Shown here piece after piece: positions 5,600-58,740 of a DNA stretch of 64,000 bases (position 1 is its first letter; every line of letters begins with the position of its first letter). Made by a program: the position numbers and the translations under genes. The notes beneath the pieces are model-generated. The model was given only the letters and a program-made list of their open reading frames with translations. It was not told where the DNA came from and made no database searches. Where the stretch lies: contig OZ024740.1 of the NCBI GenBank assembly GCA_964016885.1, positions 400,768,001 to 400,832,000 of the forward strand, written 5' to 3'. The DNA comes from Eledone cirrhosa (lineage: Eukaryota).

Positions 5600-5663
<64 letters not shown>

Positions 5664-6397: not shown

Positions 6398-6464
<67 letters not shown>

Positions 6465-6931: not shown

Positions 6932-6966
<35 letters not shown>

Positions 6967-7781: not shown

Positions 7782-7833
<52 letters not shown>

Positions 7834-8277: not shown

Positions 8278-8453
8278 TAGTCTCAAGAGGGATTCCTTTT
8301 AATTCATCCTCTGAGACATGTGACCTCTGCGCAGAGGAGATATTCTTTATACTAAAATCTAAAAATTCCCTTAACCTACGGACAAATTTATTCAGTTGTT
8401 GCAAACATAGATTAAACTCAACGTTTAAATATAAATTTAAATTTAAAATGTAG
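8278..8453 (+). pseudogene. C-terminus of a PLE GIY-YIG endonuclease ORF (mirror copy at 8102-8277, minus)
   Basis: IVSRGIPFNSSSETCDLCAEEIFFILKSKNSLNLRTNLFSCCKHR resembles the PLE C-terminal motif CxLCxxEKxxI...LNxRxE...CRH. The N-terminal part of the 100-aa ORF is just antisense read-through across the palindrome centre. Confidence 0.7.
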
Positions 8454-8721
8454 TATATTTAGTTTGATTTATATTTATATGAGAACTAGCCGATAAATCT
8501 TTTGATTCCTAAATCTTTGATTCCCTCTTTTTACTGTTTATTTTATTGTATTTATTTTTATTTTTATTTTTTATTTTTTATTTTTATTTTATCTAAACAT
8601 TCCTCATGAAAAATTAAGCTACCCTAAAAGCCGATGCTCCAAATTTTATGAATTAACCTTACACTTGATAAACTTATATATTAAATATAGGAACATATGT
8701 AGACATTATTGGACATCATAA

Positions 8722-8759
<38 letters not shown>

Positions 8760-9574
8760 GATATTCCTTGCTAGATGTGATTTGATAGATAATTTTTGGC
8801 TTTGTCTTGTAGTGAACTTGGCAATATATTGTCAATTAACCTTGAAGGGTTGTTCTTTGTGGTTTATTTTTTATTTTTATTTTTATTTTTATTTTTATTT
8901 TTATTTTTATTCTTTTAGTATTGTAGTATTCTATAATATTTTTATATTTTTATATTTTTATTTTTTATTTTTTATTTTATTTTATTTTTATTTTTAATAT
9001 TTTTATATGTAAAGTTTTAATACGTAATAATTTTAAAACATAGTATTTTTAATATGCAATATTTTTATTATGTAATATTCTTTCGTAATATTCTTTTTTA
9101 GTTTTCTATTCTATATTTTTATATTTTTATATATTTTTACTTATTATCATTATTATTGTTATCTCTGCTTATAATATAATATATATTTTCGATTGGTATA
9201 TTGAAATCTGCTCTCTATTTCTGCTTGATAGATAATCTTGTAGAGTAATCGCAAGAATAATAATACGCTCAAATGTTTATACCACATTGAGAATGTTTTC
9301 CGGTAACTTTGAATTTGCGGAGTGAATCAGTTGGATTCACATAGACATATGAATTTTTTAAAAAACTAAACATAAGATAATGAATTTTCACGCATTGTGA
9401 ATACTTGTTTCATTCAGGAATACTGATATTTACAATATAGTGTAAGTTTTATAAATACTAATACATTAAAACATAGGGTTTTCTACGCCTCGAATATGTC
9501 TGGCTATTTTTAAATTTTTCTCTCTCTATATCTCTCTATATCTCTCTATATCTCCCTTACATTAATACTTGAGC

Positions 9575-9609
<35 letters not shown>

Positions 9610-9972
9610 ATGCATCATTGATACACTTACTCAAAATGACCTCCCACTACCTAATTTTTCTATATCTATATTTATATATGTATCTATCTCTATTTCCTCT
9701 CTCTATATATATATATATATCTCTTTCGGTCTCTTTACATGAAGCTCTTCGCTTTATCTATTTTTCCATCTCTCTATTTTGTCCCATGCATTTCTTCTTT
9801 TTCTTCTTTTTCTTCCTTTTCTTCGTTTCGTCTTTCTTTCTTTCTTATTTCCCTCTTTTCTCTCTCTCTTTCTTTCTCTCTGTATTTTCACTGCTAGAGT
9901 GAACCTCTTCAAATGAAGTTGATGTTTATTACGGTATGTCGAATATATTTATCTATAAAACTGTTTATATTG

Positions 9973-10038
9973 TATTTTGTCTGATGAAGGCATAGCATAT
10001 TGTTAATATGATGTCCCCGAAATATATATAATGAAATA
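9973..10038 (+). ncRNA. type I hammerhead ribozyme motif (mirror at 6503-6568, minus)
   Basis: TATTTTGT-CTGATGA-[stem II with CATATT/AATATG and GGCAT/ATGTC]-GAAA-TATATA-TA-ATGAAATA; 8-bp stem I with 2 G-U pairs and palindromic loop III. Confidence 0.7.
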
Positions 10039-10496
10039 AATATGGTTTTATAAATATAGTTTTCCATTTATTTAATATTGTAAATATACTCCAAGTATTT
10101 GTCGAGTGCTTTTATATCAGTTATAAATATTTACTAGTTGTAACCCAACAATTTTAAATATAACTTTACACATATATATATATATATATATTTATACATA
10201 TATTATATGACTATATTTATCTTTATACACCCATTCTTTCATACACATGTACATACACCAACAAAGCCGTTAATTAAGAGGGACCCTCTAGAGAATAACT
10301 ATTTAAATCTTTTTTTATATAGTAAACTGAAATGTTTTTGTTAAATACTCTCAGCTGATTTCCCTTGTTGCTGGTTCTTTGTATATATTTATCTGGTAAT
10401 AAGTATTGTATTGTATTTCATTACTTCATTTGTTACTTAGGTTTCAGCTAGATATTTATATATTTAATCATATATTTTTAATCACTTATTGTTTAA

Positions 10497-12819: not shown

Positions 12820-12990
12820 TGTAAATATAATAATAATAATACAAGGCCGATTTGTTAAGCCTTCATTACGTCTATTGATTGGTAACGCGCGTTACGCTAT
12901 TGATCAGATCAAGGCTCGATCTGTATTGACCTGGCCCGACTCTGGGATCAAAATCTCGTCGGACCTCTGCTGTTGTAATGACAGAATATA
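12820..12990 (-). mobile_element. short interspersed repeat with a degenerate hammerhead-like motif; homologue at 40735-40915 (+)
   Basis: Shared GTCCGACGA...CTGATCAATAGCG(A/T)AACGCGCGT...ACGTAATGAAG. Confidence 0.6.
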
Positions 12991-13052: not shown

Positions 13053-13231
13053 ATAAGGTATGGTAAGATACCAGATGGACCATAACGCACCAGAATACGA
13101 GATACTTGGGGTAGTAGAGTGGATAATATGAAAAGATTCAGGACCCCGACGGCTGAGCTCCAGCCGTTTCGACAACTATATCTGTCGAAACTGCTGGAGC
13201 TCAGCCGTCGGCGTCCTGAATCTTTTCATAT
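13053..13231 (-). mobile_element. mini fold-back element, copy 1 (hairpin 13126-13231 plus ~70-bp tail)
   Basis: ATATGAAAAGATTCAGGACCCCGACGGCTGAGCTCCAGCCGTTTCGACA followed by its reverse complement; homologous to 41190-41384 and 47951-48145. Confidence 0.85.
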
Positions 13232-16097: not shown

Positions 16098-16892
16098 AAT
16101 ATGGGGAGAAGAACACTGCATGGTTGCACATGGATTTACATGTTATAAAATGAGTCCCTCATCAGTGATTTGCCAACGACGATTGGTATTTCATCGCATT
16201 ATAAATCAGATACCTCACGTTGGAGCGATAATAACTAAAATAAGTTATTAGAACATTTGAAACGCGTAAAGCGAGTGAGACAAGTAAACAACACAGGGGA
16301 AAGCTAACCGAAGATGGAAAGAAACACAAGCAACATGGTTATTCTATCAGCTAAAGCTGTGTGAATATATGAGCGAGTTAGAAACAGACCTTCTGCTAGT
16401 CAATCCGATGTTAGAAAGAAGGAAAATCGTTTTCGTAGCGAACGAGAGGAGGTGAGAAGGGGAGAAACAGAGAGTGAGTGAGTGGAAGTGCGAGGAAGAT
16501 GTCAGTAGAGAGAAAGTGTTAACTGACATGACAGAGGGGACGAAAGAAAGTAAGAGAAACAAAGAGAACGAGGGAGCAGTAAGAGAGAAAGAGAGAAACA
16601 GTAGAAGGGGTTGAGTCGGGGATAACCACAGTAAGTAAGGTAATCAATACATGGCAGAGTAAAATATTTTTATTTTATAGAAGGAGCTTAAAATATATAA
16701 AAATATAAAATAAAAAAATATATATATATATACAGATGTAATATGTTATTTCGGGTTCATTCGGAGGTAACCAAAGTAAGTAAGGTACTCAATACATAGC
16801 AGAGTATAAATGTTTTAATGTTTTAATATAGAAAAGCTTCTACAGGACTAGAACTGTTTCATTCGTGAGAAATATATATATATATATATATA

Positions 16893-17938
16893 TGGAAAGT
16901 TATATTTAAATTGTTGTGTTACAACTAGTAAATATTTATAACTGATATAAAGGCACTCGACAAATATTTGGAGTATATTTACAATATTAAATAAATGGAA
17001 ACTATATTTATAAAACCATATTTATTTCATTATATATATTTCAGGGATAACATATTAACAATATGCTATGCCTTCCTCAGACAAAATACAATATAAACAG
17101 TTTTATAGATAAATAGATTCGACATACCGTAACAACATCTACTTGCATTTGAGAAGGTTGATTTGGTTGATTTGGTTGAGAAAAAAGGAAAGAAGGACAG
17201 AAAACGAAGAAAAAGAAAAAGAAGAAATGCATGGAACAAAATAGAGAGATGGAAAGATAGATAAAGAGAAGAACTTCATGTAAAGAAACAGAAAGAGATA
17301 TATATATATATAGAGAGAGGAAATAGAGATAGATACATATATAGACAGCTAGGTAGTGGGACGACTGTTGAATAACGTATCAATGATAAATTTATTTATT
17401 TATTTATTTAGCTCTAGTATTAATGTAAGGGAGATATATGGAGGGAAAACCAGCTGTTATATAGGGAGAGAAAAAATAAATAAATAAATTTATCATTCAT
17501 ACGTTATTCAACAGTCGTCCCACTACCTAGCTTTCTATATATGTATCTATCTCTATTTCCTCTCTCTATATATATATATATATCTTTCTGTTTCTTTACA
17601 TGAAGTTCTTCTCTTTATCTATCTTTCCATCTCTCTATTTTGTTCCATGCATTTCTTCTTTTTCTTTTTCTTCGTTTTCTGTCCTTCTTTCCTTTTTTCT
17701 CTCTTTTTCTCTCTTTCTCTCTCTCTTTCTTTCTCTCTGTGTACAATTTTGTCACAACCAAATCAACCTTCTCAAATGCAAGTAGATGTTGTTACGGTAT
17801 GTCGAATCTATTTATCTATAAAACTGTTTATATTGTTTTTTGTCTGAGGAAGGCATATCATATTGTTAATATGTTATCCCTGAAATATATATAATGAAAT
17901 AAATATGGTTTTATAAATATAGTTTCCATTTATTTAAT

Positions 17939-17944
<6 letters not shown>
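16893..17944 (-). mobile_element. second fold-back copy of the 6459-10172 PLE family
   Basis: Tail 16893-16979 is homologous to 10083-10172; arms 16980-17409 and 17475-17944 are inverted; hammerhead motif CTGAGGA...GAAA at 17836-17901 with a mirror in the left arm. Confidence 0.85.
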
Positions 17945-18035
<91 letters not shown>

Positions 18036-19042: not shown

Positions 19043-19707
19043 AATGTGTGGAATACATTTGTTTTATGTAGGCTTAAGTATGTGGATTGAGAAAGGGAGA
19101 GGACGATGGCGAAATTGTGGGCATGCTCATTTATTTAATGTCATGCATGCTTTCTATTACATGTTTGTGTGTGCCTTGTGTATTCTCTGAATGTGTGAAT
19201 GTATTTAATTTTATGCATACACTATAGATATGGAAACTCTTACGCGATGATATTTATGTTTTAGTTCATAGTTATTCGTAATTTAATGTCCTTTATGATA
19301 GCGCTTCATATGACAATGACGTTTCAATAATAATAATAAAATCATAAGAATGAGACCAAAAAATCTTTCGTTTGTTGGAAATGTACGCAGTGTCTCGTTC
19401 GTTCTTTTTTTTTTCATCGACCACAGAATCACGAAAGGCAAAACTATCATCGACGCGATTGAACCTCAGGGTATAGGCGCGGGAGCGAGTGCATGATAAA
19501 CAATGCAAAATGTAATGATTGAACTATTCCTTAATAATATTAAGAATGAATTATTTTGTAGAGCAATACTGGAAATTGAGGAAGGATAAATTCTGCCTCG
19601 GCTGGATTTGAACTTAGAATTTAAAATGATATAATTAAATACCACAAGCTATTCTTCGTGCAACTTTACCGATATTCATTTTACAATTATAGAAATATAA
19701 CTAATAA

Positions 19708-19890
19708 TTGTTTCTACTTTTTGGCACAAGGCCAGCAAATTACACAGTACATTACTGGTACTTTATTTTATCGACCCTGTAAGGATGAAAGGCAAAGTTA
19801 ACCTCGGCGGCATTTGAACTCAGACTATAAAGGGCGTAACTCTTTGCTGCATAGCATGGCGTCCAACCCTCTACCGATACTGCCACTCCA
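19708..19890 (-). mobile_element. SINE family A
   Basis: Reverse complement of the family A consensus; a more degraded copy follows at ~19895-20010. Confidence 0.85.
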
Positions 19891-21830: not shown

Positions 21831-23694
21831 AGCGTTATAAGGAACATCAGTTTTTCATTGGCCCTCCTCACAAGAAACAAGTTCGGTGTGTATGCAGTTG
21901 TTTTGTAATTATTCTGTGTATCCATGTGAATGTGTTTAGAGGATGCGGAACAGGAAAACAAGCATAAGCTTTGTTAGGAGATTCCAGAGTGGTTTTGATG
22001 ATGTGTTCTTTTTCTTAATATTGTTGCTACTAATGTTGGTGTTGCTGGTGCAGTTGTTGATTCTCCTTTCACTCTTGTTGATATTGTTGCTGCTGCCGGG
22101 GCGCGGGTACCGCTGATTTTGTACGCTGTTGGTTTCATGGATGTTGTCGAAGCCCTGGTTTTGGCAACAATGGAGCTCTGTTTCTGGCTTTATATCTCCA
22201 AACGTATCATAGACCAGTGTTCTCCTCGTGTTTCATTTACTTTCAGGAGGGTTTCACTACATTCCAGGCCCGCGCAGCTCAGGATTCACCAGATACCTAC
22301 CTCATGTGGGATTCCGGAAATTATGACACCTAAAGTCATTCTCATTAAATACGTATTTGTTGTTTTAATAGAGTATTATAGAGTGTCTGGTGGCAACAGC
22401 TTTACATTTAAAGAGCACTGGAATGACTACAAAATGCGTGACTTTTATGATGTTCTGTATGTCAAGCATTATTCTTGTGCTCTTTAAGTTTTGGCATGAA
22501 CCGGGGATTCGAACATGTGTGTACACGCGCATGTATATATCAATTTTTTTTTCTGATGCTAACAAAACCTCGATTTGATGGCTACATTGTTAACTCTTTT
22601 GATTAGTTTGGCCCCTTGTGTCAAATATAAGCGTTTATATGAAATATCCATGCTGAAATGTTCCGTTGCTTTTACTGCCGTTGATGAAAGTATATTTTTG
22701 TTTATATTGTTGTTGTTGCTTATGTTACTACTGTCACTGTGTCATTGATGTTCAGGTCCATGTCACTAGTGTTTTTGTTGTTATTTATGTTGTCAATGAT
22801 ATTTATGACTGTGCTTATTATTGTCGTTTTGGTACTAATGTCGTTGTTGTGTTTGGTTGTCTTTGATCTTGTCAATATGATACCGGTGACAGCGGTGACA
22901 ATGTTTTCAATTGCGGGAAATTAAATTCATACATTTCATTTATTTCCCGCATTTTGTTGTTGTCGCTGCTTTCTGGTAATTGAACTTTGGCTGTTCCATA
23001 TTCTGTCGAGCGGGCTGTACTTTTTAGCGGATAATTTCCTCTCGTTCACCATATCCTGGTTTGGTTGGTGAGTTTATGAAAAAGAAGCACACATTTATCC
23101 CTCAAGTGCTGAAGAAAAAGGAAAACGACCGAGATCCATTGGAAGAAGGCCGGTTTAACCACAGAGAATATTCTGACAAATATGTTTTACAAACATGTAA
23201 ATAAACATTAATTTTACTCCACCGATCTGTACCATGTCTCAAGGGACTCAATAATATTGATCATATTGGTGATAATGGTAATAATAATGATAATAATAAT
23301 AATAATGATAATAATAGTAATAATGATAATGAGGATAATGATAATAATTTCTTTATTGGACAAAAGTGCCTATATATAGGGAGAATGCAGTAGTCAGAGA
23401 CAGTCGGCGTTTACAAGAAAATCGAGTAAAAATATACAAAACAATAAAAATAAACAAAAGAATTACAGCAATGAAAATTCCCAAATAAGGGAGAGGGTCC
23501 AATCGGGGGCGACACAGGAACCCACCAATCCTGATCCAATATCCACACTGGTTAATATGTTGGCATCAGTGGCGTAGCTAGGGTAAACGGCGCCCAGGGC
23601 AAGCATCAAAATCCCCCCCCCCCCAATCAAAGAGTCAAGATCCACAAAGACGAAATTGCGGTAGAATTTATAATAAAAAAACAAAAAACGGTTA

Positions 23695-25340
23695 TAACTC
23701 TTGATTTTTCGAGCTTTTAATGAGGCAAACTGGTTGATAATTTTCTCGAAATAAGTTCGTTCAAACTCTTCGATTTCTACATTCAAAAGGGCGAGATCAG
23801 TCAGCCGTTGTTGGCCCATTGAGGTTCGCAAATACGAATGTATTAGCTTCAGCTTGCTGAACGACTTCTCGTAACTGGCAATTGAAATAGAAATCGCCAA
23901 CATTATCATGCTTTCCAGCATAGTTACGTCCCTTTACAATCTGAGTTCAAATCCCGCCGAGGTTGACTTTGCCTTTCATCCTTACGGGGTCGATAAAATA
24001 AAGTACCAGTAATGCACTGCGTAATTGCTGGCCTTGTGCCTAAAGTAGAAACAATTATTTGAATGCTGATTCGCAAATTGGGAAAAACACATTCATCGCC
24101 GTATTGTATGATGAGTTGGAGAAGTGCCTCCGGCTTTAAAATTGGGTCAGCTGTCCTAGTAGCTAGCAAAGATCGGCAGTCCAAGATTTCCTCATACAAT
24201 TGCTCTCTTTCGATGTCGGAGTTGTTTAGTTCCGCAAGACTGTTGTACCTTTATTTAAGGACAAGGTTATCAGGAGCAGCCAAATAAAATAGATAGTTGA
24301 CATCAAGAAGAAAGCCAAAACTTGAGTCTGTTTCCTTAAGTCGAATAAACCGTTCTACCATTTCTGTTTGAAGACGATTGAGTGAACTTTGCATTGCTCT
24401 CTCTATCTCTTTTTTGGCAGCCACCTCGACGTACTCAGTAAATTCGGTATTGGTTTGTCGTCATCCTCGCCTCCTCGGAAAATCGACATTCCATTTCTGG
24501 CAGAGGTCGAAGCCCATTTCAAGAGACTCGTGGATTAAGGATGTTCCTTCTTCTTTAAAATAAAGTTGAAGGGCTCCTATATCAGCTGCAGCATCGTGGA
24601 AATTCATTCTTGTATCTTGAAGTCTCTTTTGAACCCAGTCAATTCGTGAGAGAATCGTGTTCCAGAATCCAATCAAGTTCAGGAATTCATAACTCAGTAT
24701 CCGATTATGGAGATTACTGGCATCACTTCTACTCTCGCATGTCTCTGTTTCATCATCACTAATTTTTTCGAGAACTTGAACAATCAGCGTCAAATAATTC
24801 GCCACCGGTCTGACTGCGGTACATCTAGCACTCTACCGCGTGTCGGAAGGATATTTAACAACCACTGGAGCAACTTCTTTAAGGGCTTCCCATCGTCGTG
24901 TTGAACGAGAAAAAAAGTTCATCATAGCAGAATCATGTTTGGCTGCATGAAGACCAGCCAGATTAAGTGAATGGTTATCGCAATTAACGAAGTGAATCAA
25001 ATTCTTCTTCTCTCTCATTCTCTGCTGAACCCCACTGCGGTTCCCAGCCATTATGGCAGCATTGTCGTAGCACTCCGATCGACAGTTCTGCAGTGGTAGG
25101 TCATCTTTTTCTAGCTCTTTCACGATTGTTTCAACAAGGCTTGCGGCATCTTTTTTGATTACTTGAATGAATCCAAGAAAAGGTTCCCTCACAACCACCG
25201 TCTTCATATTGAAATCAACATCGACATATCGCACAACTTTTGACAGTTGTTCTCAGTGCGCCTGGTCAAGGGTCGAATCAATCAGCAGACCATAGTATCT
25301 TGCTTTTTGGATACGACTTAGTAAATTCTGACGAACTGTA
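23695..25340 (-). pseudogene. hAT transposase (ZMYM1/Tip100-like), frameshifted and 5'-deleted
   Basis: GLLIDST..., CYDNAAIMAG...GVQ, CDNHSLNL, STRRW, and the dimerisation motif SxEKSFSKLKLIHSYLRTSMGQQRLTDLALL. Confidence 0.9.
23922..24058 (+). mobile_element. 5'-truncated SINE family A inserted in the hAT transposase
   Basis: B-box and central domain; splits the transposase between FPNLRISIQI and MLAISISIASYEKSFS. Confidence 0.85.
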
Positions 25341-26785: not shown

Positions 26786-27235
26786 CTAGCAGAAAAACCA
26801 CCCTTAGGGTGGTTTTCTGCTAGCATGTGTAATGTGCATATTGATATTATACGAAAATATATATGCATGCAGATATGATACATCAAATAAAATCGTAATT
26901 GACAATATGCACAGAAATTGAACGAAGTAAAGTAATCCATGATACATTTAAAAAAGACGATATTATATATAAACTGCACTAGGAAAAAAATTAGTGACGG
27001 AAATATATGAATGTTTATATAACCGATCGCTAACCGGAAGTGTTGACATTTGAAAAGAGGTGAATCTTTAAATAAGCAATAAAATATATTTGATCAACAG
27101 CTACGAAATTTAGTAGATAAATTATGTAATATTCATTCAATATTTATTCAAAGTAATCCAACTTATTTTACAAACGGGATAAAAAAATATATTTTGGACG
27201 TTGTCCCGCACTCCTACCTTTATTATAGTTAAGAT
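26786..27235 (+). mobile_element. possible non-autonomous Helitron/Helentron-like element
   Basis: 5' CTAGCAGAAAAACCACCC-TTA-GGGTGGTTTTCTGCTAG hairpin and 3' end TTTATTATAGTTAAGAT, resembling ACTAG...TATAGAT-ended rolling-circle derivatives. Confidence 0.4.
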
Positions 27236-28995: not shown

Positions 28996-29534
28996 GTGCG
29001 TGCATACAAAACGAAGAATCTATAATCAGACGAACCAGTGGGGGAGCATCTACGTTGTTGCTGGACATTCTAAAAATAAGTTAAATTCTTTTCCAATATA
29101 ACCTATTCCCAAACAACAAAATATTGAAATACTCAAAGTATTGGCTTGGAATCGGCATAAAAAACAACCAATGACAATAGAAACAATTAAAACATGTTTT
29201 GAAACATATTTAGATTTATTTCATTGAAGCTTCGAGAATTATGAAAAGCTTCGAGAATTATGAAAAAAATATATTCAAAGCAACTAAAACTAAACAAAAT
29301 ATGTGAAATTAAACAGCTATACTATATATAAATATGTACTTTGAATTTAGAGATTATTTCAGTCATATTGATTTGTACTTTTGATACTGTAACACAAACA
29401 CTGTTGGGTTGAAAATAATTGATTAAATCCAACCTCATTAATTGACTAGTCTTTATTTTAATGAATACGTAAAGGAGAAATTGCAAAGTGCACATGAGCA
29501 GATTTGGAACTCAGAACATGAATATCTAAAGTAA

Positions 29535-29725
29535 ATAATTGTTTCTACTTTTGGCACAAGGCCAGGAATTAACCAGTACATTACTGGTATTTTATTTTAT
29601 CGACCCCGTAAGGATGAAAGGCAAAGTTAACCTCGGTGGGATTTGAACTCAGAATGGCAAGGGCCGTAACTCTATGCGTCAAAGCATGGCGTCCGACCCT
29701 CTACAGATACTGCCAATCCACACCA
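29535..29725 (-). mobile_element. SINE family A, full length
   Basis: Reverse complement of the consensus including A and B boxes. Confidence 0.9.
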
Positions 29726-37453: not shown

Positions 37454-37650
37454 AGGTGGTGGATTGGCAATATCGGTAGAGGGTCAGACGCCATGGTTTG
37501 ATGCATAGAGTTACGGCCCTTGCCATTCTGAGTTCAAATCCCACCGAGGTTAACTTTGCCTTTCATCCTTATGGGGGCGATAAAATAAAGTACCAGTAAT
37601 GCACTGGATAATTGCTGGCCTTGTGCCAAAAGTAGAAATAAGTATTATTA
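37454..37650 (+). mobile_element. SINE family A, full length
   Basis: GGTGGATTGGCAATATCGG, GAGTTCAAATCC, central domain and tail. Confidence 0.9.
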
Positions 37651-40200: not shown

Positions 40201-40392
40201 TATATATATGCGTGAGTGTGTGTGTATGTGTGTAGTTGGATGGACACACAGTTAGACAAACATACACATGTGATACAGCAGCAAATACCTACATCCACAT
40301 GTAGGTAGTTGCTGCTGTATCACATGTGTAAGTTTGTCTAACTGTGTGTTCATCCAACTACACACATACGCACACACTCACACATATATATA
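40201..40392. repeat. ~94-bp-arm hairpin with a 4-nt loop
   Basis: ...GCAGCAAATACCTACAT-CCAC-ATGTAGGTAGTTGCTGC...; few mismatches. Confidence 0.9.
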
Positions 40393-40734: not shown

Positions 40735-41118
40735 ATTGTAATTCTGCCATTACCTCATTACCACGACAGAAGTCCGACGACCTTTTGATTCGGGCTAGAC
40801 CGATATGGATCGAACCATGAGCTGATCAATAGCGAAACGCGCGTCACTACTCAATTAACGTAATGAAGACATAATAAATCATCCTTTTTATTTTTATTGT
40901 TATTATTACTATTATATATATATAGCAAAGTTAAAACTAAATATAGAAAGCTCAAAGAAAATTAGTGAATTATATATGATCGTATATAATTGCCACGTTT
41001 TTTCGGGAATAGCTATAACTTTTTGTTTCGTATAAAAACATAAATTCCTGATGAATTCATGCGAATGAAACAGTTCTAGTCATGTAGAAGCCTTTTCTAC
41101 TCTCTATATAATATATGT

Positions 41119-41189
<71 letters not shown>

Positions 41190-41194
<5 letters not shown>

Positions 41195-41381
41195 AACGAG
41201 TAGGACCCCGACGGCTGAGCTCAAGCCGTTTCGACGGCTAATTCTAGACAGAATTAGCCGTCGAAACGGCTTGAGCTCAGCTGTCGGGGTCCTACTCGTT
41301 CCTATTACCCACTCTACTACCCTAAGTATTGAGTACGTTGGTGCGTTAAGGTCCACCTGGTTCCTTATCACATTTCCTTCG

Positions 41382-41384
<3 letters not shown>
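41190..41384 (+). mobile_element. mini fold-back element, copy 2 (hairpin 41190-41305 plus tail)
   Basis: Near-perfect 56-bp stem with a 4-nt loop; tail homologous to copies 1 and 3; (TA)n on both sides. Confidence 0.9.
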
Positions 41385-41435
<51 letters not shown>

Positions 41436-41967
41436 CGTTTCTGAATTTGTTTAGCAAGATTCTTTATCTGAAATCGTGTGTTGGAACCGATATTGTTATA
41501 CTTTGGGAGGGTCATGTTGCCAATAAGAAACACACGCACCAGTTGCTTTCACTTCAATTTATTATATATTTATAAATTTATAAATTTACAAATCTACAAA
41601 CTTATAAATTTCTGGTTGGTTGGTTGGTTCCACAACCAGATAGTTGTTTATATATAGTCATAGTCCTTTCGTCACACACTCTGTGACCTCTTCAGTGACT
41701 GGGGATTCCTTTCTTTGTTTCTGTGCCTTTCCTTTCTTCTATCTTACGCCATTTTGTTTCTGTGTGTGTGTTGTGTGCTCAGTTTGCGCATGCGCCACAT
41801 CCGGGTGTCTGTGTGTGTTTGTGTTCATTTATCTATTTGTTTATTTATTTATTTATTTATTGTTGGTTGGTTGTTTGTTCTATGTGTGTGTGTATTTTCA
41901 TTTTGTCCTTAATTGTAAGTTGTGATGTTGCTGTTCCACTCATATTTTCTATTTAATTTTGGTTGTA

Positions 41968-42736
41968 GAGAGACACATACAACACTTCTTCCACCGTATG
42001 CAGTTCTCTGGCTACAATCAGAGAGATAGAATCAGAGTGTATAGAGGAGCCAGAACCAAATGGGAAAAAATGGTAAATAATGACATAAATGGGACCTCCC
42101 CCTTGTATAGGAGCAAATTTTGGAATAGAATAGAAAGAACTAGGAACAAGGCCAATAGAATAAACTCATGGTATGATAGCAATAAATACCAGAGTGTAAT
42201 GTTCATCAATACAACCCCTAGAGGCGAACTAGCCTACAAATTTAGAAGGGCCCTAAATAAACATAAACTCAATATTAAGATAGTAGAAAGACCAGGTACC
42301 TCCGTAAAAACACTTATTAGCAAGACATACCCGTTCCAAAGACACTCATGTATAGATAAGAAATGTATAACCTGTAAAATAAGCCCCCATATTAACTGTA
42401 AAACTAGAAATGTAGTGTATAGCATAAGATGTACTGAAGGAAGGACAATGTAGAAACAAAAATATAGTGTACATAGGTGAGACAGCTCGTAGTATAGGGG
42501 AACGAATAAATGAACACTGGCGAGACCTTCAAGATAATAAAGAATCATCTGTGCTCTACCAACATGCTAAGATAGAACACAGGGGTAGATTAGAGAACAT
42601 AGAAATAAAAATAGAATCCACACACAGAAAAGATGCAATGTTTAGGCAAATTACAGAGGCAGTAAGCATAAAAGAATTACAACCAAAATTAAATAGAAAA
42701 TATGAGTGGAACAGCAACATCACAACTTACAATTAA
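41968..42736 (+). pseudogene. PLE RT thumb/linker and GIY-YIG endonuclease, one frameshift
   Basis: SGY..., Cys-rich linker, NVVYSIRC...YIGETARSIGERINEH...RQITEAVSI...PKLNRKYE; frameshift near 42437, probably a GAAG duplication. Confidence 0.9.
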
Positions 42737-42944
42737 GGACAAAATGAAAACACACACACACATAGAACAAACAACCAACCAACAATAAATAAATAAATAA
42801 ATAAACAAATAGATAAATGAACACAAACACACACAGACACCCGGATGTGGCGCATGCGCAAACTGAGCACACAACACACACACAGAAACAAAATGGCGTA
42901 GGATAGAAGAAAGGAAAGGCACAGAAACAATGAAAGGAATCCCC

Positions 42945-42989
42945 AGTCACTGAAGAGGTCACAGAGTGTGTGACGAAAGGACTATGACT
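42945..42989 (+). ncRNA. minimal type I hammerhead ribozyme motif (mirror at 41656-41700, minus)
   Basis: AGTCA-CTGAAGA-G-GTCACA-GAGTG-TGTGAC-GAAA-GGAC-TA-TGACT. Confidence 0.75.
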
Positions 42990-43147
42990 ATATATAAACA
43001 ACTCTCTGGTTGTGGAACCAACCAACCAACCAGAAATTTATAAGTTTGTAGATTTGTAAATTTATAAATTTATAAATATGTAATAAATTGAAGTGAAAGC
43101 AACTGGTGCGTGTGTTTCTTATTGGCAACATGACCCTCCCAAAGTAT

Positions 43148-43225
<78 letters not shown>

Positions 43226-43228
43226 ATA

Positions 43229-44663
43229 TCCAGCTCTCCTTACATCCAGATCTGTCAACCGCTCTCTCCACACTTCTGATCTTCTCTATCAGTGCCTCCT
43301 CTCTGACCTCAGTGTAAGCGGTACAGAGCTCTTCCCTCATCACCTCCACAGTCTCCATCCTCTCCTCCGTAGGATCAGCATAGAATTGGTCCCTGGCAGC
43401 TTTCAGGTGTTCTCTGGCTGCACACACTTTTGGGTTTGCAGAGCTGAGGTGCTTCCCTTTGTTCTTTTTCCTCGGCACCAGTGTTTCACTTGCTTTCGCC
43501 ACTGTATTGGTGAAATGCCCGTACCTCCTCGTCACACTCTCCTCAGTCCATCCAATCTCTCTCTCCTCTGACTCTCCACACAGAGCACTAAACCTGTTTC
43601 TCACTTCCACTGTGAACCTCTCCTGTAGCTTATCATCTTCCTTGAAAGCTCCCCAGTCATAGATTGTTCTCCGGGGCTGAGCCTTGCTCTTTCTTAAGCT
43701 CACGCGGACCTCACTCATAACAAGCCGGTGGTCACTACCCAGTGTACTGAAATAGCTGTATGGTTCCGTGTTCAGAACACTATTCCGCCACTTTTTCCTC
43801 ACCAGAATGAAATCAATCTGGGACTTGGACAGGTGCATATCTGAGATGTAGGTCCACATCTTCCCCAGATTCTCTCTAAACCTTAGGTTGGTCGCCATCA
43901 AGTTCGCCTCCAGCAGGGTGTCTCTCAGTAGTCTTCCATTTCGGTTGGTGTTGTTATGGAAGTACCAGCAAGGATCTTCACTGCCCTCCTTACTCAGATG
44001 TGCATTGAAGTCCCCTAAAACAAGCAGGATATTGTGTGCCTGAGTGGTGTTGACAGCTCTACACACCTCCTCATGGAACTCCTCGGCATTCACATCACTG
44101 TCCCCCTCGGTTGGACTATAGGCTGAGATGACTGTCAGTCTTGGGTTTCCATTGAAGGTCACCCTCAACACTCGCGGGGAGATAGGCATTATTTCCCTCA
44201 CCAAAAGATTGGTTTTTGCACTGAACACAAAACCCACTCCTCCCACTGCAGCATTTGTTGTGTTCTTCACTGCCGATGTAGTGATGAGCTGGCTCTTCCT
44301 CCCGATCATCACACTCCTCACAGGCTCATCGTGTAGAATCCTGTGTTCTTCGATTGCAAGTATCTGTATACCACTCTCCTCGAACAGATGTCCCAACTCC
44401 TCTCTCTTCTCCAGCGTTCGAATAGTCCTCACATTCAAAGTGCCCATTTTGATGGCTCTCCTGCAGGACAAAACTGCATTCTTTATATTTGTCTCAGAGA
44501 CAGCTGATCCATCATCCACTGGCCCTCTCTGTGGCTCTAAGCCAGCAGAGTCATAACGACCAGGCTGCTCCTTGATAGTGTAATTAGGGGCTCTAACCCT
44601 AGTGCTGTTAGATCGACTCTCCATATTTCTTTTCAATGGCTGACAATACCTTACCGGCGCCAC
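43229..44663 (-). CDS. RTE LINE ORF, N-terminal half (APE endonuclease), truncated by inversion
   Basis: Open 483-aa frame with GTLNVRT, AIEEHR, SAYSPT, LGDFNA, QIDFIL and SDHRLV; ends in (TA)n. Confidence 0.9.
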
Positions 44664-44837
44664 TCGAATAAGGTAGTTATTTAACCCATAAATGGAGCCC
44701 TAACAGGTACTACCACCCCGGGCCAGGGCAGACCTGGGAGTCATGACAACTAAGGGGTAACTCCACATTCCCCACATCTCCTGAACTCCCGAACTGGAGC
44801 CTTGCCACTGGATGTAGTTTAATGTCATACCCAGGCC
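44664..44837 (-). mobile_element. RTE LINE 5' UTR (inverted segment)
   Basis: GC-rich sequence upstream of the APE ORF on the minus strand, ending at the AGGCCT junction. Confidence 0.7.
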
Positions 44838-45905
44838 TTTGATTCTGTGGACCGTTACTGCCTGATGAAGATCTTACAGGCTTATTGAATCCCCAAGAGG
44901 ATAGTGGACCTGATATCACTGCTCTACACCAACACCAAAGCCCAAGTCATTACACCTGATGGGATGACAGAGTTCTTTGAGATACTGGCTGGAGTGCTCC
45001 AGGGAGATACATTGGCTCCCTACCTTTTTGTCATCGTAGTGGACTATTGTATGCGCCTTGCACTGGAGAAACACCAGGACTCTGGCTTTACTGTAGCACC
45101 GGCTCAGAGCAGGAGAGTTGGGGCGAAAAAGGTATCGGATGCTGAATTTGCCGACGACATAGTTTTGGTGACAAATACAGTGAAGGAGGCAGAGGATTTG
45201 ATGCGGGAGGTTGAGACTGTGTCGATGAGTGTGGGGCTGAGAATGAATGAGACTGAAACAAAATATCTGGTAGAGAATGTTGAGAAGCCAGAGGGGATCA
45301 CTAATGTAGGCGGGAAGCCGCTGGAATTGGTTGAGGACTTCCTGTATTTGGGAGCAAAGATTGGGAATACGGAAGATGATGTGGTTGAGAGGAAGAGCAA
45401 GGCCTGGGCGGCGTGTCACAGCTTGAGATCGGTGTGGAAGTCGGACCTTCGTAGAGACCTGAAAATCCACCTCTTCATTGCTGTAGTGGAGTCTGTGCTG
45501 CTGTATGGGTCTGAGACTTGGACACTGACCACGAGACTCACTCAGATGGTGGATGGGTGCTACACGAGAATGCTGAGGATGGCTCTGAACATTAATCAGT
45601 ATACACTGAGGATGAAAAACTCAGAGCTGTATGGGAGCATCTCAAAAGTCAGCTCAAAAGTGACACAGAGGAGACTGAGGTTGGCTGGACATGCTCACCG
45701 ACATCCAGAGTTGACATTGCACTCAGTGCTCCTTTGGGAGCCCCTACATGGACACACTAGAAGAGGAAGACCAAGGTTAACATATGTTGATGCCCTAAGG
45801 ACAGACACTGGTCTGTTGGAGATGCAGGATATGGCAGCGCTAATGAGGGACAGAGACCGCTGGAGAGAACTCGTCCATGGATCTCGGGAATTTTACCCGC
45901 CTTAG
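44835..45905 (+). pseudogene. RTE LINE reverse transcriptase, C-terminal half
   Basis: AFDSVDR (one in-frame TGA at 44886), GVLQGDTLAPYLF, FADD, FLYLG, LLYGSETW, RLRLAGH, RGRPR; (TAGA)-like tail at 45903-45920. Confidence 0.92.
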
Positions 45906-46062: not shown

Positions 46063-46460
46063 ATATTGTTATACTTTGGGAGGGTCATGTTGCCAATAAG
46101 AAACACATGCACCTACTGCTTTCACTTCAATTTATTATAATAAATTTATAATTAATTTATAAATTTATAAATATCTGGTTGGTTGGTTGGTTCCACAACC
46201 AGATAGTTGTTTATATATTGTCATACTTCTTTCGTCACACACTCTGTGACCTCTTTAGTGACTGGGGATTCCTTTCTTTGTTTCTGTGCCTCTCCTTTGT
46301 TCTTTCCTACGCCATTTTGTTTCTGTGTGTGTGTTGTGTGCTTAGTCTGCGCATGCGCCACATCCGGGTGTCTGTGTGTGTTTATGTTCATTTATTTATT
46401 TGTTTATTTACATGTTACTGGTTGGTTGTTTGTTCTATGTGTGTGTGTGTTTTCATTTAT
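46063..46460 (-). mobile_element. solo, diverged pseudo-LTR of the 41433-43155 PLE family
   Basis: Homologous to 41490-41900; hammerhead core mutated (CTAAAGA). Confidence 0.85.
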
Positions 46461-47950: not shown

Positions 47951-48137
47951 TAACAAAGGAATTGTGGTAAGGAACCAGATGGACCATAACGCACCAGAGT
48001 ACTCAATACTTAGGGTAGTAGAGTGGGAAATAGGAAAAAGTATGACCCCGATGGCAGAGCTCAAGCCGTTTCGACGGCTATTTCTAGTCCAGAAATAGCC
48101 GTAAAACGGTTTGATCTCTGCCGTCGGGGTCATACTT

Positions 48138-48145
<8 letters not shown>
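47951..48145 (-). mobile_element. mini fold-back element, copy 3 (tail plus hairpin 48030-48145)
   Basis: Homologous to copies 1 and 2; (TA)n flanks. Confidence 0.85.
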
Positions 48146-50571: not shown

Positions 50572-50611
<40 letters not shown>

Positions 50612-50612
<1 letters not shown>

Positions 50613-51175
50613 ACTGTTTCTACTTTAGGCACAAGGCCAGCAATTACCCAGTGCATTACTGGTACTTTATTTTATCGACCCCGTAAGGATGAAAGGCAAA
50701 GTTAACCTCGTTAATAATATATATAAAGTTAATAATATAATAATAATGGTTTCTGGTATAGGCAGAAGGCTAGTAATTTGGGGGGAGGGGAAAGTCGATT
50801 AAATCGACCCCAGTTACTGGTGATTTATTTTATCGACCCCGTACGGACGAAAGGCAAAGTTAACCTCGCCGGGATTTGAACTCAGAATGTAAATGGCCGT
50901 AACTCTATGCTGCAAAGCCCTCTACCGATACTGCTAATCCACAATAATAATAATAGTGGTTTCTTATATAGGCACAAGGCCAGAAATTTTAAGGGAGGGG
51001 AAAGTCGATTAAATCGACCCCAATACATTACTGGTGAAAGTCGATTTTATCGACCCCGTAAGGATGAAAGTCAAAGCTAACCTCGGCGGGAATTGAACTC
51101 AGAAAGTAAAGGAGCATAACCTATGCCGCAGAACATGTTATCCGACGCTCTACCGATACTGTCAATCCACCACCC
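50612..51175 (-). mobile_element. three head-to-tail SINE family A copies
   Basis: ~50612-50712 (truncated), ~50745-50942 and ~50957-51175. Confidence 0.85.
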
Positions 51176-51191
51176 TTTATGATAATAATGC

Positions 51192-53460
51192 TTTCTTTAT
51201 TAACGACACAAATATTTACAAAAAGTACATTAAGGACAGCACAACAGTACAGGACGGTACAAATACGGGTTTCTGCGTCTATAAAAAATAAACAACAAAG
51301 GATGTAACAAAAAACGGGTAGGTACCCAATAGGGTAGGAGGGGACTTCCGTCATGGAGAAAGCCCTCAAAAAGCGACGGTGACCTGACCACAAGGGTATG
51401 TGCCCTCTCCCAGTTTTCCACATCCAACCTAAAGGCGCATACTCTAAGCAGGCCCATTCATTCGAGCCATCCTTGCCTCAGTCACCCATCTTTTAACAAC
51501 TGCTGGGAAGGGAGCACATCCCTCTCCATCCTGATTTTCCTTTTCAAATGAAATTCTAAAAAGTTAATCAGGACTTCGCCGAAGAGGAACGTGCTCATCT
51601 TCAGATCTTTCAAACGTGTCCATAATACGATCTCTTTCACCATGACAACCTGGCAGATAACAACTACATGCCCTTAACGGTTAAATAAAGGTGGTGGGAT
51701 GATTTTTACGATGGACTCAGCTGATAGCCGGATCCGGCCTACACGCAACAACAGGTACGCGACATAAACCCACAAGTCAGCAATGCTCGGATACACAACG
51801 AATACGTGCAGGACGGTTTCGTTGCCATTAGTGCATTTCGAACAGGTTCGGCTGACGGCACATCAATGCCTATAGAATTTCTGCCGAACTGGCAAAGCTC
51901 CTCAGTACCACTGCCAAGCCAGTGCCGTTGTCGCTCTTACCTTCCTCTAACCCTCTATAGAAAGCCAAGGTGGAGTCTTCACCGATCGTAGTGCACGATT
52001 GGCTGAGGGCTGTGAGCACCTGAAGACATTCCAGTCTACAAGTGCTACGTCTCCGCCTTCGCTTGAACGAGGGGTGTAGTTCCATCAAGGAGACGAGCTG
52101 GGTAAAACACGTCTAGAAAATGGTGACCACACCTGTCCATCGATAAGGAAGAGTTGGAGATGTCGTAGCCTCAGCTCATGTTTGCCATGTACGCTCGACC
52201 TTTCAAGGACAGCAACTTTCAGTCCACTTCTGGGTAGATAGGCCAGCCTGCTCGTCAACTCGTCCCAGTTTTTGTCCATCTGGAGATCTTGAGAAAACCA
52301 GAACCCTAGTATTTTAACCGGTCCGTCCATCCAGCACCCGACAACACTGTTGGACGGAATGGACATGTTTCTCCAGATGCCGACATACACCGACTTTCCT
52401 TGTTAATCTTTGCTCCCGTCATCACCTCGTATTCCTTGAGAGCATACATACATACATACGTACATACATACATACATACATACATACATACATACATACA
52501 TACATACATACATACATACATACATACATACATACAGGATGGCTGCAAACTCTGCTAAGAGTATTGCAATCGCTTGTCAGATTATCGAGTTTGGTGCACT
52601 TTTAGGCTACCGCCAGCCACACATACCTATAACATATCCTGAACAAGCAATGTATATATGTACCTACATACATATATACATTTCAATGTGTTTGGTGCTG
52701 GACACCACTATGGTGACGTCGTCAGCCTAAGCTGACACGGTTCTGGCGCATTAGAGAGTCAATTCATACAACAATGACGAGAGTGGTCAACCTTGGCGGA
52801 CCGAGTGCATGAAGTTGAACGGTTCCGAAAGGTGACCATTCACTCTCAGCACAGAGCAGATATCTCTGTGCATAGCAGCGCTCCAGTGTCTGAAGACGGG
52901 ACCAAAACAGGCCACCCTCAGGACCACCACCAGATATCGATCGATGTTCAAACCTATCAAAACCTTTTGACTGATCTAAAATGATCAAGGCTCCAACCGT
53001 ACCTGATGTATCGATGATGTGGAAGTTTTCGTGGATGGACTGTCTGGAATGGCGCATGTCTGCGCCTCTACGCCCAGAGTCCTGATGACATGCGTCAACC
53101 TTGTCGCTAAAACCTTGGCCAAAATCTTAAACTCTGCGTTCAGAAGAGATATGGGCCTGATATTATCTACTTAGTCCACCTTGTTCGGGTCCTTTCACAG
53201 CAGCGTCACCATTCCTCGGCTCGCAGAGCTGGGAATGCTCCCGACTTACTGCCTGTGACAGTAGATGTCTGCCAATAGGTCACCGAACAAGTCTGGAATG
53301 TGCATATAAAGCTCGTAGGACAGACCATAAAAACATGGTGATTTACACATCGTAAAGCTACTCATTACCTCCCGTACTTCAGCGGCTCTTATCGGCTTTT
53401 CACAATAGCCCTACGGGTCTTTGTCTGCAGTAGGTTGGGACCAGAGTGAGCTCTTGAGTG
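51192..53460 (-). mobile_element. degenerate L1/Tx1-clade LINE (RT and C-terminal region)
   Basis: Minus-strand IRPISLLNAEFKILAKVLATRL, GALIILDQSKGFDRFEH, ADDVT, GAKINKES, VKILGFWF, ETVLHVF; interrupted by (TACA)n and an insert at ~52443-52700. Confidence 0.85.
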
Positions 53461-54732: not shown

Positions 54733-54786
54733 GTCACACACGCATACCTATATATATTAGTTCTTATTATTTAGATTAGAAAAGGG

Positions 54787-55010
54787 AGGTGGATTGGCAG
54801 TATCAGTGGGGAGTCGGACACCATGCTTTGCAGTCGGACACCATGAGTTACAGCCCTTTATGATCTGAGTTCAAATCCCGCCGATGTTAACTTTGCCTTT
54901 CATCCTTACGGGGTCGATAAAATAAAGTACCAGTAACGTACTGGGGTCGATTTAATCGACTTTCCCCTCCCCTCAATCACTGGCCTTGTGCCTATACTAG
55001 AAATCATTAT
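54787..55010 (+). mobile_element. SINE family A (long-tail variant)
   Basis: A and B boxes, central domain, GGGGTCGATTTAATCGAC segment. Confidence 0.88.
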
Positions 55011-55197
55011 TTAGATTAGAAAAATAACATTCACAAGTCCCATGATTGTTAACTTTTCGAGGCCTTCACTATCCCATGATTAGTAGCATGATCACACTAG
55101 TGGCGTTTTGGTTATGCGATAAGATGGTTTCGTGAAAGATCATGGAAGTGTTAGGAAATTATGGTCCTCTGATTTTTAATTTCTCAACCATTGAAAG

Positions 55198-55460: not shown

Positions 55461-55595
55461 GAGAATATGCCATATTGCTTAAATATTAAACAAATGTTTA
55501 GTTAAGCATAAACGCCCAGGAAAATGCCACATTTTTCGTCTCAAGTAAACGCAGTAGACACACATATCTTCCAAATTCTTCTATTTGCAAAATAT

Positions 55596-55945
55596 TCCCA
55601 CGTAGACATTTTACTCACCAAATGCGTGATAAAAGCCAACTTCATGTGATAATGTCTCCACACATGACATGAAATATATTGACATTAACATCAATGACAT
55701 CAATGTTATTAACAACACATTCTATTTTAGGCCCAAGGTCGATGCAATTGCTTGACTACCAATCAAACACTTGCATCGATATATTGATTTTCTCATTCTC
55801 TCAAAACCTGATCTTGGGACTAAAATAGAATTTATCATTAGTATTATTGATGTTAATGTCAATATTTTTGATGTCATGTGTACAGATATCATCACATGAA
55901 GATGGAATTTATCACGCATTTGGTGAATAAAATGTCTACGTGGGA
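55596..55945. repeat. MITE-like inverted repeat (~100-bp arms, ~150-bp spacer)
   Basis: 55596-55695 versus 55846-55945. Confidence 0.8.
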
Positions 55946-56875
55946 TTATTAAAAATATGTTTCCCTATGATTTAACGCTTCTGCGAATCTAAAGCCGTTA
56001 TAATAACAACAACAATTCCCAATTAAAGCAAAAGACCAGTAAATTGAGGGTACGGTAAACACCCACTTACTTTTAACGACAGTGAAATGATGAAAATCGA
56101 AGTTGACGTCAGCAGGATTTGAACTCAGAACATAAAAAACAGTAACTACACAGTAACGACACTAAACTCTTTGTCCGACTCTTTTAAAGATACTGCCAGC
56201 CCACCAATCTTATCATAATAATAATACTAGCGTCAATATAGTGAATTATTGCAGGTTTGTCTTTGTTTATCAATTGGAAATTATGGTTAAACAAATATAA
56301 AAGCTAAATAATGCCAGACACGAGCGTGAATTTCGATGCTACATAGATAATCTTTACAGACAATATATATGTGTGTATGCGTGCGTGTGCATGTATGTGC
56401 ATTACTGTAAAAAATTGACATCAGAACACATGCATATGAGTGAGTTTTGCTTTGGTTGTGCATAAGCCCGTATATTTTATTGAGGTATGTTATTACAACC
56501 AGTTTTCAGGTCTCTGCATATTCTCTGCAAATTAAACATTGCCGAATGCGTTTCGTCGGAAGGTCGTTCACGGGTGAAATTGTTGGAGCTAAACATGTTA
56601 TATTATATATTCTCCCCATCTGTACAAGTATTTGTCTTAGTAGAAGTCACATGCCAAATTCATTAACTTATAACATGCGGGGAGACTTAAGGTTATTATG
56701 CTTTATAAATAGAAAATAAATAAATCTATATGTATTTTATTATTCTTTTCTTCAGGGAGAGGGTGTTTCAAGTTAAGTATATATAAGAAACAGAGAAAAA
56801 TTAGATTCTAGTAGGTTTTGTATTTTCTTGAACACACACATGCACGCACACAATCATACACACACACACACACGT

Positions 56876-57839: not shown

Positions 57840-57845
<6 letters not shown>

Positions 57846-58646
57846 AGTATTATACGTACATACATATATGTATACAGACGTACAGTAGTATGTATATACA
57901 TACATGCACACATATATATATGTACGTATGGGTTTAATGAACATTTATTATATTGCTTGGTTTGTTTGTAAACAAACAACCCGAATTAAGCCGTACAGTG
58001 TTCGGCAACCATCGTTGCCCTTTTGTTTAACACTGACAAAGAACGATGAACTAGTTTCTAGCTTATTAGCTGTCATCAGCACCGTATACCTTCCTTTCAG
58101 TCGATTCAACATTTGAAAGTATATACTTTCCTTATGCATATTAACGGCTGAGCAGCCTAATTTGCATATCGAATGAGTTAGTCGGCCGGGTGTACCGAAA
58201 CCGATAAATGGAAAAAATTAAATTTCATTTCTCGCTCTTAGTACGGCTGATACTTAAATATAAGTATGTATACGTACATACATATATGTATACAGACGTA
58301 CAGTAGTATGCATATACCTACACACATACACACATATATATATGTACGTATAGGTTTACCGAATATTTATTATAATGCTCGGTTTGTTTGTCAGTGTTGA
58401 ACAGTGTTGAACAAAAGGGCAACGATGGTTGCCGAACACTGTACGGCTTAATTTGGGCTGTTTGTTTACAAACAAACCGAGCATTATAATAAATGTTCGG
58501 TAAACCCATACGTACATATATATATGTGTGCATGTATGTATGTATATACATACTACTGTACGTCTGTTTACAAATATGTATATGTACGTATACATACTTA
58601 TTTAAGTATCAGCCTTACTAAGAGTGAGAAATGAAATTTCATTTTT

Positions 58647-58650
<4 letters not shown>
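57840..58650 (-). mobile_element. non-coding retrozyme-like/PLE-derived element (417-bp period partial tandem plus inverted arm)
   Basis: 57840-57975 is repeated at 58257-58391; 58392-58650 is an inverted copy; a hammerhead lies inside. Confidence 0.75.
58044..58084 (-). ncRNA. minimal type I hammerhead ribozyme motif
   Basis: CGGTG-CTGATGA-CAGCT-AATA-AGCTA-GAAA-CTAG-TT-CATCG; 5-bp stem I and palindromic CTAG loop III. Confidence 0.8.

Positions 58651-58740
<90 letters not shown>

Follow-up and report, generated by a model that had tools for sequence, protein, structure and literature searches.

The 64,000-nt window, by which we mean the whole stretch of DNA that was analyzed, contains three short mirror-image repeats, at 13053–13231, 41190–41384 and 47951–48145 (hereafter copies 1, 2 and 3), each of which carries a one-sided tail. 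The initial annotation had listed three related copies at exactly these positions, and this is borne out by pairwise identities of 76–87% in a BLAST comparison of the microsatellite-masked window, which yielded no fourth member of the family at E ≤ 1. The arms, approximately 50–57 bp long in each palindrome, pair out to 13126/13231, 41190/41305 and 48028/48147, respectively, and one of them runs on into the tail, which spans about 79 nt (73 nt in copy 1) and is confined to one arm in all three copies; this is the key asymmetry of the family.

In copy 2, where the tailed arm is taken to represent the RNA sense strand (the polarity of the whole family is assigned in the same way), the tail-less arm (41190–41249, minus strand) is the mirror of the unit, with its outer end in (TA)n and its inner end at the apex boundary; it is followed by the tailed arm (41250–41305, plus strand) and the 79-nt tail (41306–41384, plus strand), which terminates in (TA)n. 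The flanks of this copy, to which no strand can be assigned, consist of 60 alternating bases on the left (41133–41192) and 50 on the right (41383–41432). In copy 1, the tail, which has a variant end (13053–13125), and the tailed arm (13126–13184), the longer one in this copy, are on the minus strand, and the tail-less arm (13183–13231, plus strand) lacks about 14 nt at its apical end and overlaps the tailed arm by 2 nt. The tail (47951–48029) and the tailed arm (48030–48085) of copy 3 are likewise on the minus strand; the unit's initial few bases are missing from this tailed arm, and the tail-less arm (48085–48145, plus strand) begins at TAGTCC, the fixed boundary of the family. Five of the six outer ends directly abut alternating TA, the exception being the tail end of copy 1, with a short (TC)n tract followed by TA. 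Because both flanks are TA repeats, a target-site duplication is invisible there.

The palindromes are genuine and not an artefact of assembly, because raw reads of two other samples span the apex (with a depth of 188 and 123 over 41233–41238) and the arms carry one to six mismatches. An open reading frame that crosses copies 2 and 3 was rejected as coding; the frame shifts in copy 1. The fold z-scores of single arms and single units, between −1.12 and 0.12, were unremarkable in all eight cases, and a search of copy 2 against Rfam gave sub-threshold hairpin matches only, with no tRNA family among them. ARAGORN, a tool that misses decayed SINE heads, reported no tRNA genes in the window.

The initial annotation recognized in the right half of the palindromes the 3′ half of a minimal hammerhead ribozyme. 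This assignment is plausible, and the motif lies where the intact hammerheads of Penelope-like retroelements (PLEs) sit in the same window; however, the proposed parse of stem III and the UH site, CGGC-TT-GAGC-TC, places C opposite C in the first pair. In a consistent parse, GAAA is followed by a 5-bp stem III (CGGCT/AGCCG) that encloses a loop with the palindrome GAGCTC, and then by TC. The hammerhead-like 3′ half of copy 2, parsed in this manner, occupies 41260–41292 (plus strand), with C-GAAA at 41262–41266 and the strands of stem III, which contains one G·U pair in the tailed arm, at 41267–41271 and 41279–41283; the predicted cut site comes after 41285 and is followed by the putative 3′ strand of stem I. 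The proposed upstream partner, a complement of GAGCTC, was mis-specified; in stem I, the strand to be paired would be GGGG(TCC).

GAAA, stem III and UH fit in three of the four arms tested, namely the tail-less arm of copy 2 (5 bp), the tailed arm of copy 1 (6 bp) and the tailed arm of copy 2 (5 bp including the G·U pair); the tailed arm of copy 3 gave no fit. The combination of C-GAAA, a stem III of at least 5 bp and UH arises in 2 of 5,000 dinucleotide shuffles of the copy 1 unit, in a test that was picked after the motif had been seen, and the lax GAAA pattern arises in 528 of 5,000. The 3′ strands of stem II and stem III are the same 8-mer, present before GAAA and at the cut site, so that a competing hairpin is able to hide GAAA; its predicted probability is approximately 0.98 in the tailed units of copies 2 and 3, 0.5 in the tail-less arm of copy 2 and 0 in copy 1.

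The 5′ core of the hammerhead is absent, as had been noted from the outset: neither CUGANGA nor its U3-A8 or G3-C8 variants occur on either strand of any of the three copies. Rfam reported no hammerhead among 21 matches to copy 2 at E ≤ 10 and no hammerhead family among the best 150 of 297 matches in the window. Because CUGANGA is missing, a single unit is not a hammerhead as a single molecule; its 3′ half is plausibly the relic of one. The predicted cut lies 20 nt before the tail-less end, compared to 52–171 nt in three other insertions of the window that are described below. It is conceivable, though in our estimation very improbable indeed, that the half motif is still in use. The unit would then be a SINE-like Penelope passenger that propagates itself and that has retained, of a hammerhead in two pieces, exactly the substrate strand (the 3′ strand of stem II, GAAA, stem III, UC and the 3′ strand of stem I); its RNA could be cut in trans by the CUGANGA strand of a partner element, amounting to a natural split ribozyme, divided between a retroelement and its parasite, in tens of thousands of copies.

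Counted outward, starting at GTCGAAA, the arms belonging to a single copy match at 46 of 48 positions in copy 1, 45 of 46 in copy 2 and 40 of 46 in copy 3, as opposed to 30–37 of 48 or 36–41 of 46 between copies. The covariation of the arms, which had been proposed on the basis of strings that are all present, is thus a real property of the family. In no alignment column did we find a difference between the two types of arm that is common to the copies. The arms being alike within a copy, both must have been copied from one template when the element inserted or close to that moment. The apex, which the initial annotation put at the same place in every copy, is close but not identical, with 4 bp and an 8-nt loop in copy 1 as against 13 bp and a loop of 4 nt in copy 2 and 5 nt in copy 3. 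The loop of copy 1 aligns with the first bases of the tailed arms of copies 2 and 3, the overlap at the junction is 2 nt in copies 1 and 3, and the arm termini are the parts that vary most between the copies.

Miniature inverted-repeat elements (MITEs) of a TA-targeting DNA transposon of the Tc1/mariner type have conserved, symmetric terminal inverted repeats, a role that the arms would have to play here. The TA on both sides of the palindromes and the high copy number of the family are compatible with such an origin, but it is precisely the termini of the arms that are variable, the same tail is present on one side in each of the three copies, and the sequencing reads discussed below contain lopsided joints at the apex together with fixed outer ends. 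We regard this explanation as largely refuted.

The same architecture recurs in three other insertions of the window, which consist of a head-to-head pair with a one-sided tail in (TA)n and carry intact hammerheads. The insertion at 41434–43155 (plus strand) belongs to another PLE family and contains a fragment of a GIY-YIG domain, intact hammerheads at 41695 (minus) and 42950 (plus), and a 56-nt tail on the shorter copy. The match to GIY-YIG (E = 0.00038, 21.1 bits) is under the Pfam cut-off of 22.6; a CxxxxCxxC motif lies ahead of it, and the tail continues the reading frame, the ATG of which is located just inside the arm. With its tail attached to the shorter of the two copies, this insertion cannot be the product of a single self-folding cDNA. 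The second insertion, a 3.6-kb palindrome of another PLE-like family at 6453–10168 (plus strand), turns at 8277/8278, with hammerhead cores at 6560 (minus) and 9981 (plus) and a one-sided tail of about 80 nt; the frame at the turn, which has no Pfam match, resembles what we take to be the C-terminus of a PLE endonuclease. The third, at 16896–17945 (minus strand), is another member of the latter family, with hammerheads at 17080 (minus) and 17844 (plus), a one-sided tail of about 86 nt and a spacer of about 90 nt. All three turn far from stem II and keep the core on both arms.

With the three short palindromes included, a tailed arm is paired with a tail-less arm in six of six insertions, and this constant pairing suggests that the two starts are coupled. 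The extra bases at the apex belong to the tail-less arm in copies 2 and 3 and in 41434–43155, to the tailed arm in copy 1 and in 16896–17945, and to neither arm in 6453–10168.

A descriptor of complete minimal type I hammerhead cores matched the window seven times, compared to zero or one match in each of 20 shuffled windows; one of the seven, at 48717, may be a chance match, its stem being long and weak, and a looser scan adds the cores at 9981 and 6560. The minimal hammerheads at 6560, 9981, 15400, 17080, 17844, 41048, 41695 and 42950 represent at least four unrelated families, all of them cut after UA by this parse, and two have long stems II (13 pairs at 17080 and 9 at 15400). One hammerhead family is represented by 16730–16870 (minus strand) and 41048–41105; it is intact at 41048, and the other copy is 5′-truncated, beginning at 16870 inside stem II, without the core. 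The sequence downstream of this family bears a faint, non-significant likeness to the arm end and tail of the palindromes, and there is a partial tandem at 16608–16825. Homology of the tail to this 16.8-kb element was rejected as not significant (18 of 22 bases, with 1–18 of 100 shuffles equally good, among 42 comparisons).

More generally, none of 42 local alignments gave a significant match of the palindrome family to the ends of the PLEs in the window; in one of these 42 comparisons, the antisense of copy 1 against 5200–5605 scored 2 points above the best of 100 shuffles. Among other observations on these elements, a single copy of the end of 41434–43155 is present at 46067–46438. The center of the near-perfect palindrome at 6453–10168, GACTA/TAGTC, contains the same 5-mer as the fixed boundary of the short family, which may be a coincidence. 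An atlas search with the linker of the neighboring PLE led to eukaryotic clusters with GIY-YIG in a minority of members, which we treat as a lead only.

Public sequence data from four of seven runs were aligned to 41215–41382 at 80% likeness. The matches comprise 11,084 contigs in X1, 169 in X4, which represents a second organism, and 20,653 and 21,231 reads in the RAD runs X5 and X6 (0.17% of reads). Taken with the three copies per 64 kb, these counts suggest a copy number of 10^4 to 10^5, on the understanding that depth itself is not copy number. The contigs of the second organism represent a variant of the copy 1 type, and some of the matches are inside contigs of 900–1300 nt. Scans for exact patterns from the tail or an arm gave no match in metagenome contigs, viral contigs or prokaryote genomes, collections in which a repeat of animal origin would not be expected anyway.

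In the same data, the apex behaves like a constant terminus of the unit, which continues either into unrelated sequence or into truncated partner arms. Loose ends before 41249 were found in 1825 reads of X5, 1810 reads of X6 and 67 X1 contigs, and all three loose-end consensus strings end in TAGTC with mixed A/T ahead (agreement of 0.47–0.56); being a low-agreement consensus, the sequence ahead of TAGTC could hide a minority parent or one-sided deletions that followed insertion. Position 41249 is also joined to 41283, 41289, 41299, 41302, 41309, 41311 and 41339, with 1–5 letters between, and in such joints a complete arm faces a shortened partner arm. On the outer side, 3404 and 2961 reads have tail-less ends that pass into (AT)n at 41305; relative to the molecules with a cut in the AATT at 41252, these amount to no more than 47% and 40%, respectively, a share that fits frequent pairs of tailed and tail-less arms. 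The 7168 and 7317 molecules that end at 41252 were taken to reflect the RAD restriction cut at this AATT rather than biology, and we took the loose ends at the same position (agreement of 0.34–0.35) to be ligation chimeras. The depth of plus-strand first mates was 15–20 times lower to the left of the apex than to the right; because hairpins amplify poorly and AATT sites are cut, this ratio gives no share of palindromes.

A fixed end at this place could in principle belong to a non-autonomous Helitron or Helentron, the minus-strand end of which would consist of a 16-nt hairpin, 9 nt and CTA(G/A), with the match to GAAA a by-product of the hairpin. Helitrons begin with TC at the 5′ end, terminate at the 3′ end in a hairpin followed by CTRR, and insert between A and T. 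The hairpin AGCCGT-TTCG-ACGGCT is indeed predicted on the minus strand, CTAG is found at the apex of copy 3, and one joint has TAGT, the fourth base being A in the read consensus and variable in the joints. However, neither outer end begins with TC, and the base past CTAR, which should be the T of the target, is A in all three loose-end consensus strings, albeit at low agreement. Furthermore, there is no subterminal inverted repeat between the ends and no common block beyond the TA tracts, and the two fixed outer ends in (TA)n, as well as the head-to-head pairs, match the PLE insertions of the window. A Helitron therefore appears highly unlikely.

The explanation that we favor, with a probability of roughly 0.55, is that the palindromes represent a short and abundant unit, the pseudo-LTR (pLTR) stub of a Penelope-like retroelement, which is inserted head to head by two cDNAs and copied by the enzyme of a partner. 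The unit spans approximately 137 nt, from the fixed apex boundary TAGTCC through the hammerhead-like 3′ half to the tail, and has two fixed outer arm ends, at 41305 and approximately 41384, both in (TA)n. These hallmarks have published counterparts: PLEs are characterized by an adjacent, inverted and 5′-truncated copy, a tail at one end, a (TA)n target and a hammerhead in the pLTR (PMC8557442), and in a study of reverse transcription by a PLE enzyme, two start sites bound the tail and both DNA strands are extended (Frangieh et al. 2024, PMC11167929). The two outer points in our family would correspond to these two RT start sites. A unit RNA of approximately 137 nt, the 5′ end of which is always at TAGTCC, would be copied twice at one target, both nicked target strands priming a cDNA, one per start site; each cDNA would extend to the 5′ end of the unit, and the 3′ ends would then be joined with 0–5 extra or shared bases. 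Two near-complete cDNAs would yield a palindrome, and one short cDNA would yield a lopsided product. The distribution of extra apex bases, on either arm or on neither, is informative in this respect, because two cDNAs allow all of these outcomes and a single fold-back only some. The case for mobilization by a PLE rests on this architecture, with no autonomous partner or ORF linked to the family.

The same unit with the same fixed ends might instead be inserted by a single cDNA that folds back at the 5′ end of the RNA through a 2-bp primer. Copy 1 is exactly what would be expected of a tailed cDNA turning through TG/CA over an 8-nt loop, and the 2-nt overlaps at the junctions of copies 1 and 3 agree with such a primer. 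By contrast, in copies 2 and 3 and in 41434–43155 the tail-less arm has extra bases at the apex, so that there would be no template for the tail, and the joints to 41309, 41311 and 41339 combine a complete arm with a shortened tailed arm. We accordingly consider a single fold-back at the 5′ end unlikely.

Under the two-cDNA scheme, the ribozyme was probably halved once, at the origin of the unit, and not at each insertion, because the 5′ boundary sits where loop II of the ancestral hammerhead would be; a single ancestral truncation or fold-back at stem II may well have been responsible. The initial annotation, in contrast, had a cDNA prime itself on the stem II hairpin. Its broader claims, namely that the source is a retroelement, here a PLE, rather than a DNA-transposon MITE and that the arms are copied from each other, are retained, but self-priming of an intact parent on stem II at every insertion is a less likely course of events. 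In that version, a PLE hammerhead that is still intact and has an extended stem II serves as the template, the mirror replaces CUGANGA each time the tailed cDNA primes itself, and subsequent loss of bases from the hairpin tips accounts for both the TAGTC boundary and the lopsided joints. Two of the three copies (2 and 3) do have a 13-bp stem and the same loop polarity relative to the tail, with loops that read GGAC(T) or AGAC toward the tail as those of a natural 13-bp stem II would, and the 4 bp and 8-nt loop of copy 1 could be a short natural stem II. Long stems II are also found in intact hammerheads of the window, at 17080 and 15400, and the copy at 16870 (minus) starts inside stem II. Moreover, self-priming has already been proposed as the source of the palindromes at PLE junctions (Arkhipova et al. 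2013, PMC3846280).

In the reads, a parent with CUGANGA ahead of the 13-bp stem would diverge from the mirror at 41233, yet the depth at this position drops from 188 to 184 (2%) in X5 and from 123 to 119 (3%) in X6, so that 97–98% of the depth across the putative stem II remains mirror sequence. The non-palindromic CTGANGA parent that had been predicted was not seen: with approximately 21,000 reads per RAD run, there was no loose end at 41233 among the 24 listed of 523 loose-end entries, in a search that reaches the part of the genome sampled by RAD and to which parents that differ in stem II would be invisible, so that a rare parent may still exist. The loop of copy 1, by its alignment with the start of the arms of copies 2 and 3, looks like a shortened mirror, and the other three PLE palindromes all turn elsewhere with both cores kept. 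Finally, random deletions of the tips would be unlikely to halt at one base in about 1,800 reads.

The insertion pattern described here is the published pattern of PLEs, and the idea of self-priming for PLE palindromes is not new. The units of endonuclease-bearing PLEs share with our family the head-to-head inverted copy, the junction palindrome, the one-sided tail and the AT-rich or (TA)n target (PMC3846280; Craig et al. 2021, PMC8557442), and these reports also note solo pLTRs and invoke self-priming for palindromes. In Pen2a_Av, the pLTR and tail have a reading frame that starts inside, as in 41434–43155 (PMC3846280). Compared to the published units, the palindrome family has no ORF between the repeats, arms of only about 56 nt, a very high abundance and a 5′ boundary inside a hammerhead-like motif; its tail of about 79 nt exceeds the 30–40 bp given in print, and the tails of the other PLE-type insertions in the window span 56–86 nt. 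None of six 12-mers of the family was present in one supplementary file of PMC8557442.

The element PAc (Poseidon), which has been studied in vitro, is similar in having two RT starts around the tail and in the cutting and extension of both target strands, and its AC-rich start region has a counterpart in the likewise AC-rich sequence after 41305; however, PAc is autonomous and has a complete hammerhead, whereas our family has no linked partner enzyme (PMC11167929). The hammerhead motifs reported at PLE ends resemble ours in the C before GAAA, the palindromic loop III and the place in the end repeat, and pairs of such motifs 100–700 bp apart on opposite strands have also been mentioned; the palindrome family differs in lacking CUGANGA and the 5′ strand of stem I and in having a stem III of 4–6 bp, longer than in most metazoan hammerheads. 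Non-LTR retrozymes (bioRxiv 10.64898/2026.07.22.740005) and non-autonomous Chlamys elements such as MRC1 (PMC8557442) are, similarly, short, free of a large ORF and derived from or like PLE ends. These are organized as head-to-tail arrays, with a complete hammerhead in every unit in the case of the retrozymes; our units, in contrast, are arranged head to head or singly and carry half of the motif, so that they are not retrozymes by the head-to-tail arrangement. A search of the literature, which covered neither repeat libraries nor most subscription journals, found no published account of a hammerhead-halved PLE stub family of fixed length. The genome looks cephalopod-like, and the octopus genome paper reportedly names a SINE 'Twhin'.

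Apart from these elements, the window is rich in repeats of other kinds. Two copies (76% identical) of another repeat, at 12821–12981 and 40755–40909, each lie within approximately 300 nt of a palindrome copy, in different relative orientation. Further palindromes were observed at 5552–5711, 26786–26823, 40226–40367, 55591–55950 and 57841–58651, the first of which has a (TA)n tract at its center and is closely flanked, at 5542 (minus strand), by a CTGATGA box. According to Pfam, pieces of a LINE endonuclease and reverse transcriptase lie in opposite orientation at 43212–44699 (minus) and 44889–45905 (plus), as in a 5′-inverted insertion, and a broken remnant of a hAT transposase (DUF4371, Dimer_Tnp_hAT) is located at 23463–25252 (minus). 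At least seven copies of a dispersed repeat of about 190 nt, a SINE-like size, are present (1815–2006, 19703–19890, 23907–24060, 29534–29721, 37459–37646, 50608–51197 and 54781–55011). The segment 59156–61664 consists of three tandem copies of a unit of 465–680 nt that are 93–97% identical, with microsatellites between them.

Short palindromes of this kind are easily annotated as MITEs or as microRNA hairpins, and they are better read as insertions of the Penelope type. Their abundance and fixed ends make the family a natural data set on the origin of inverted PLE ends, which may come either from one folding cDNA or from a pair of cDNAs, each primed on a different strand; which of the arms keeps the apex bases, determined over thousands of copies, would discriminate between these two origins. 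If the unit does spread on its own without a working hammerhead, this would fit the in vitro finding that hammerhead cleavage is dispensable for insertion (PMC11167929).
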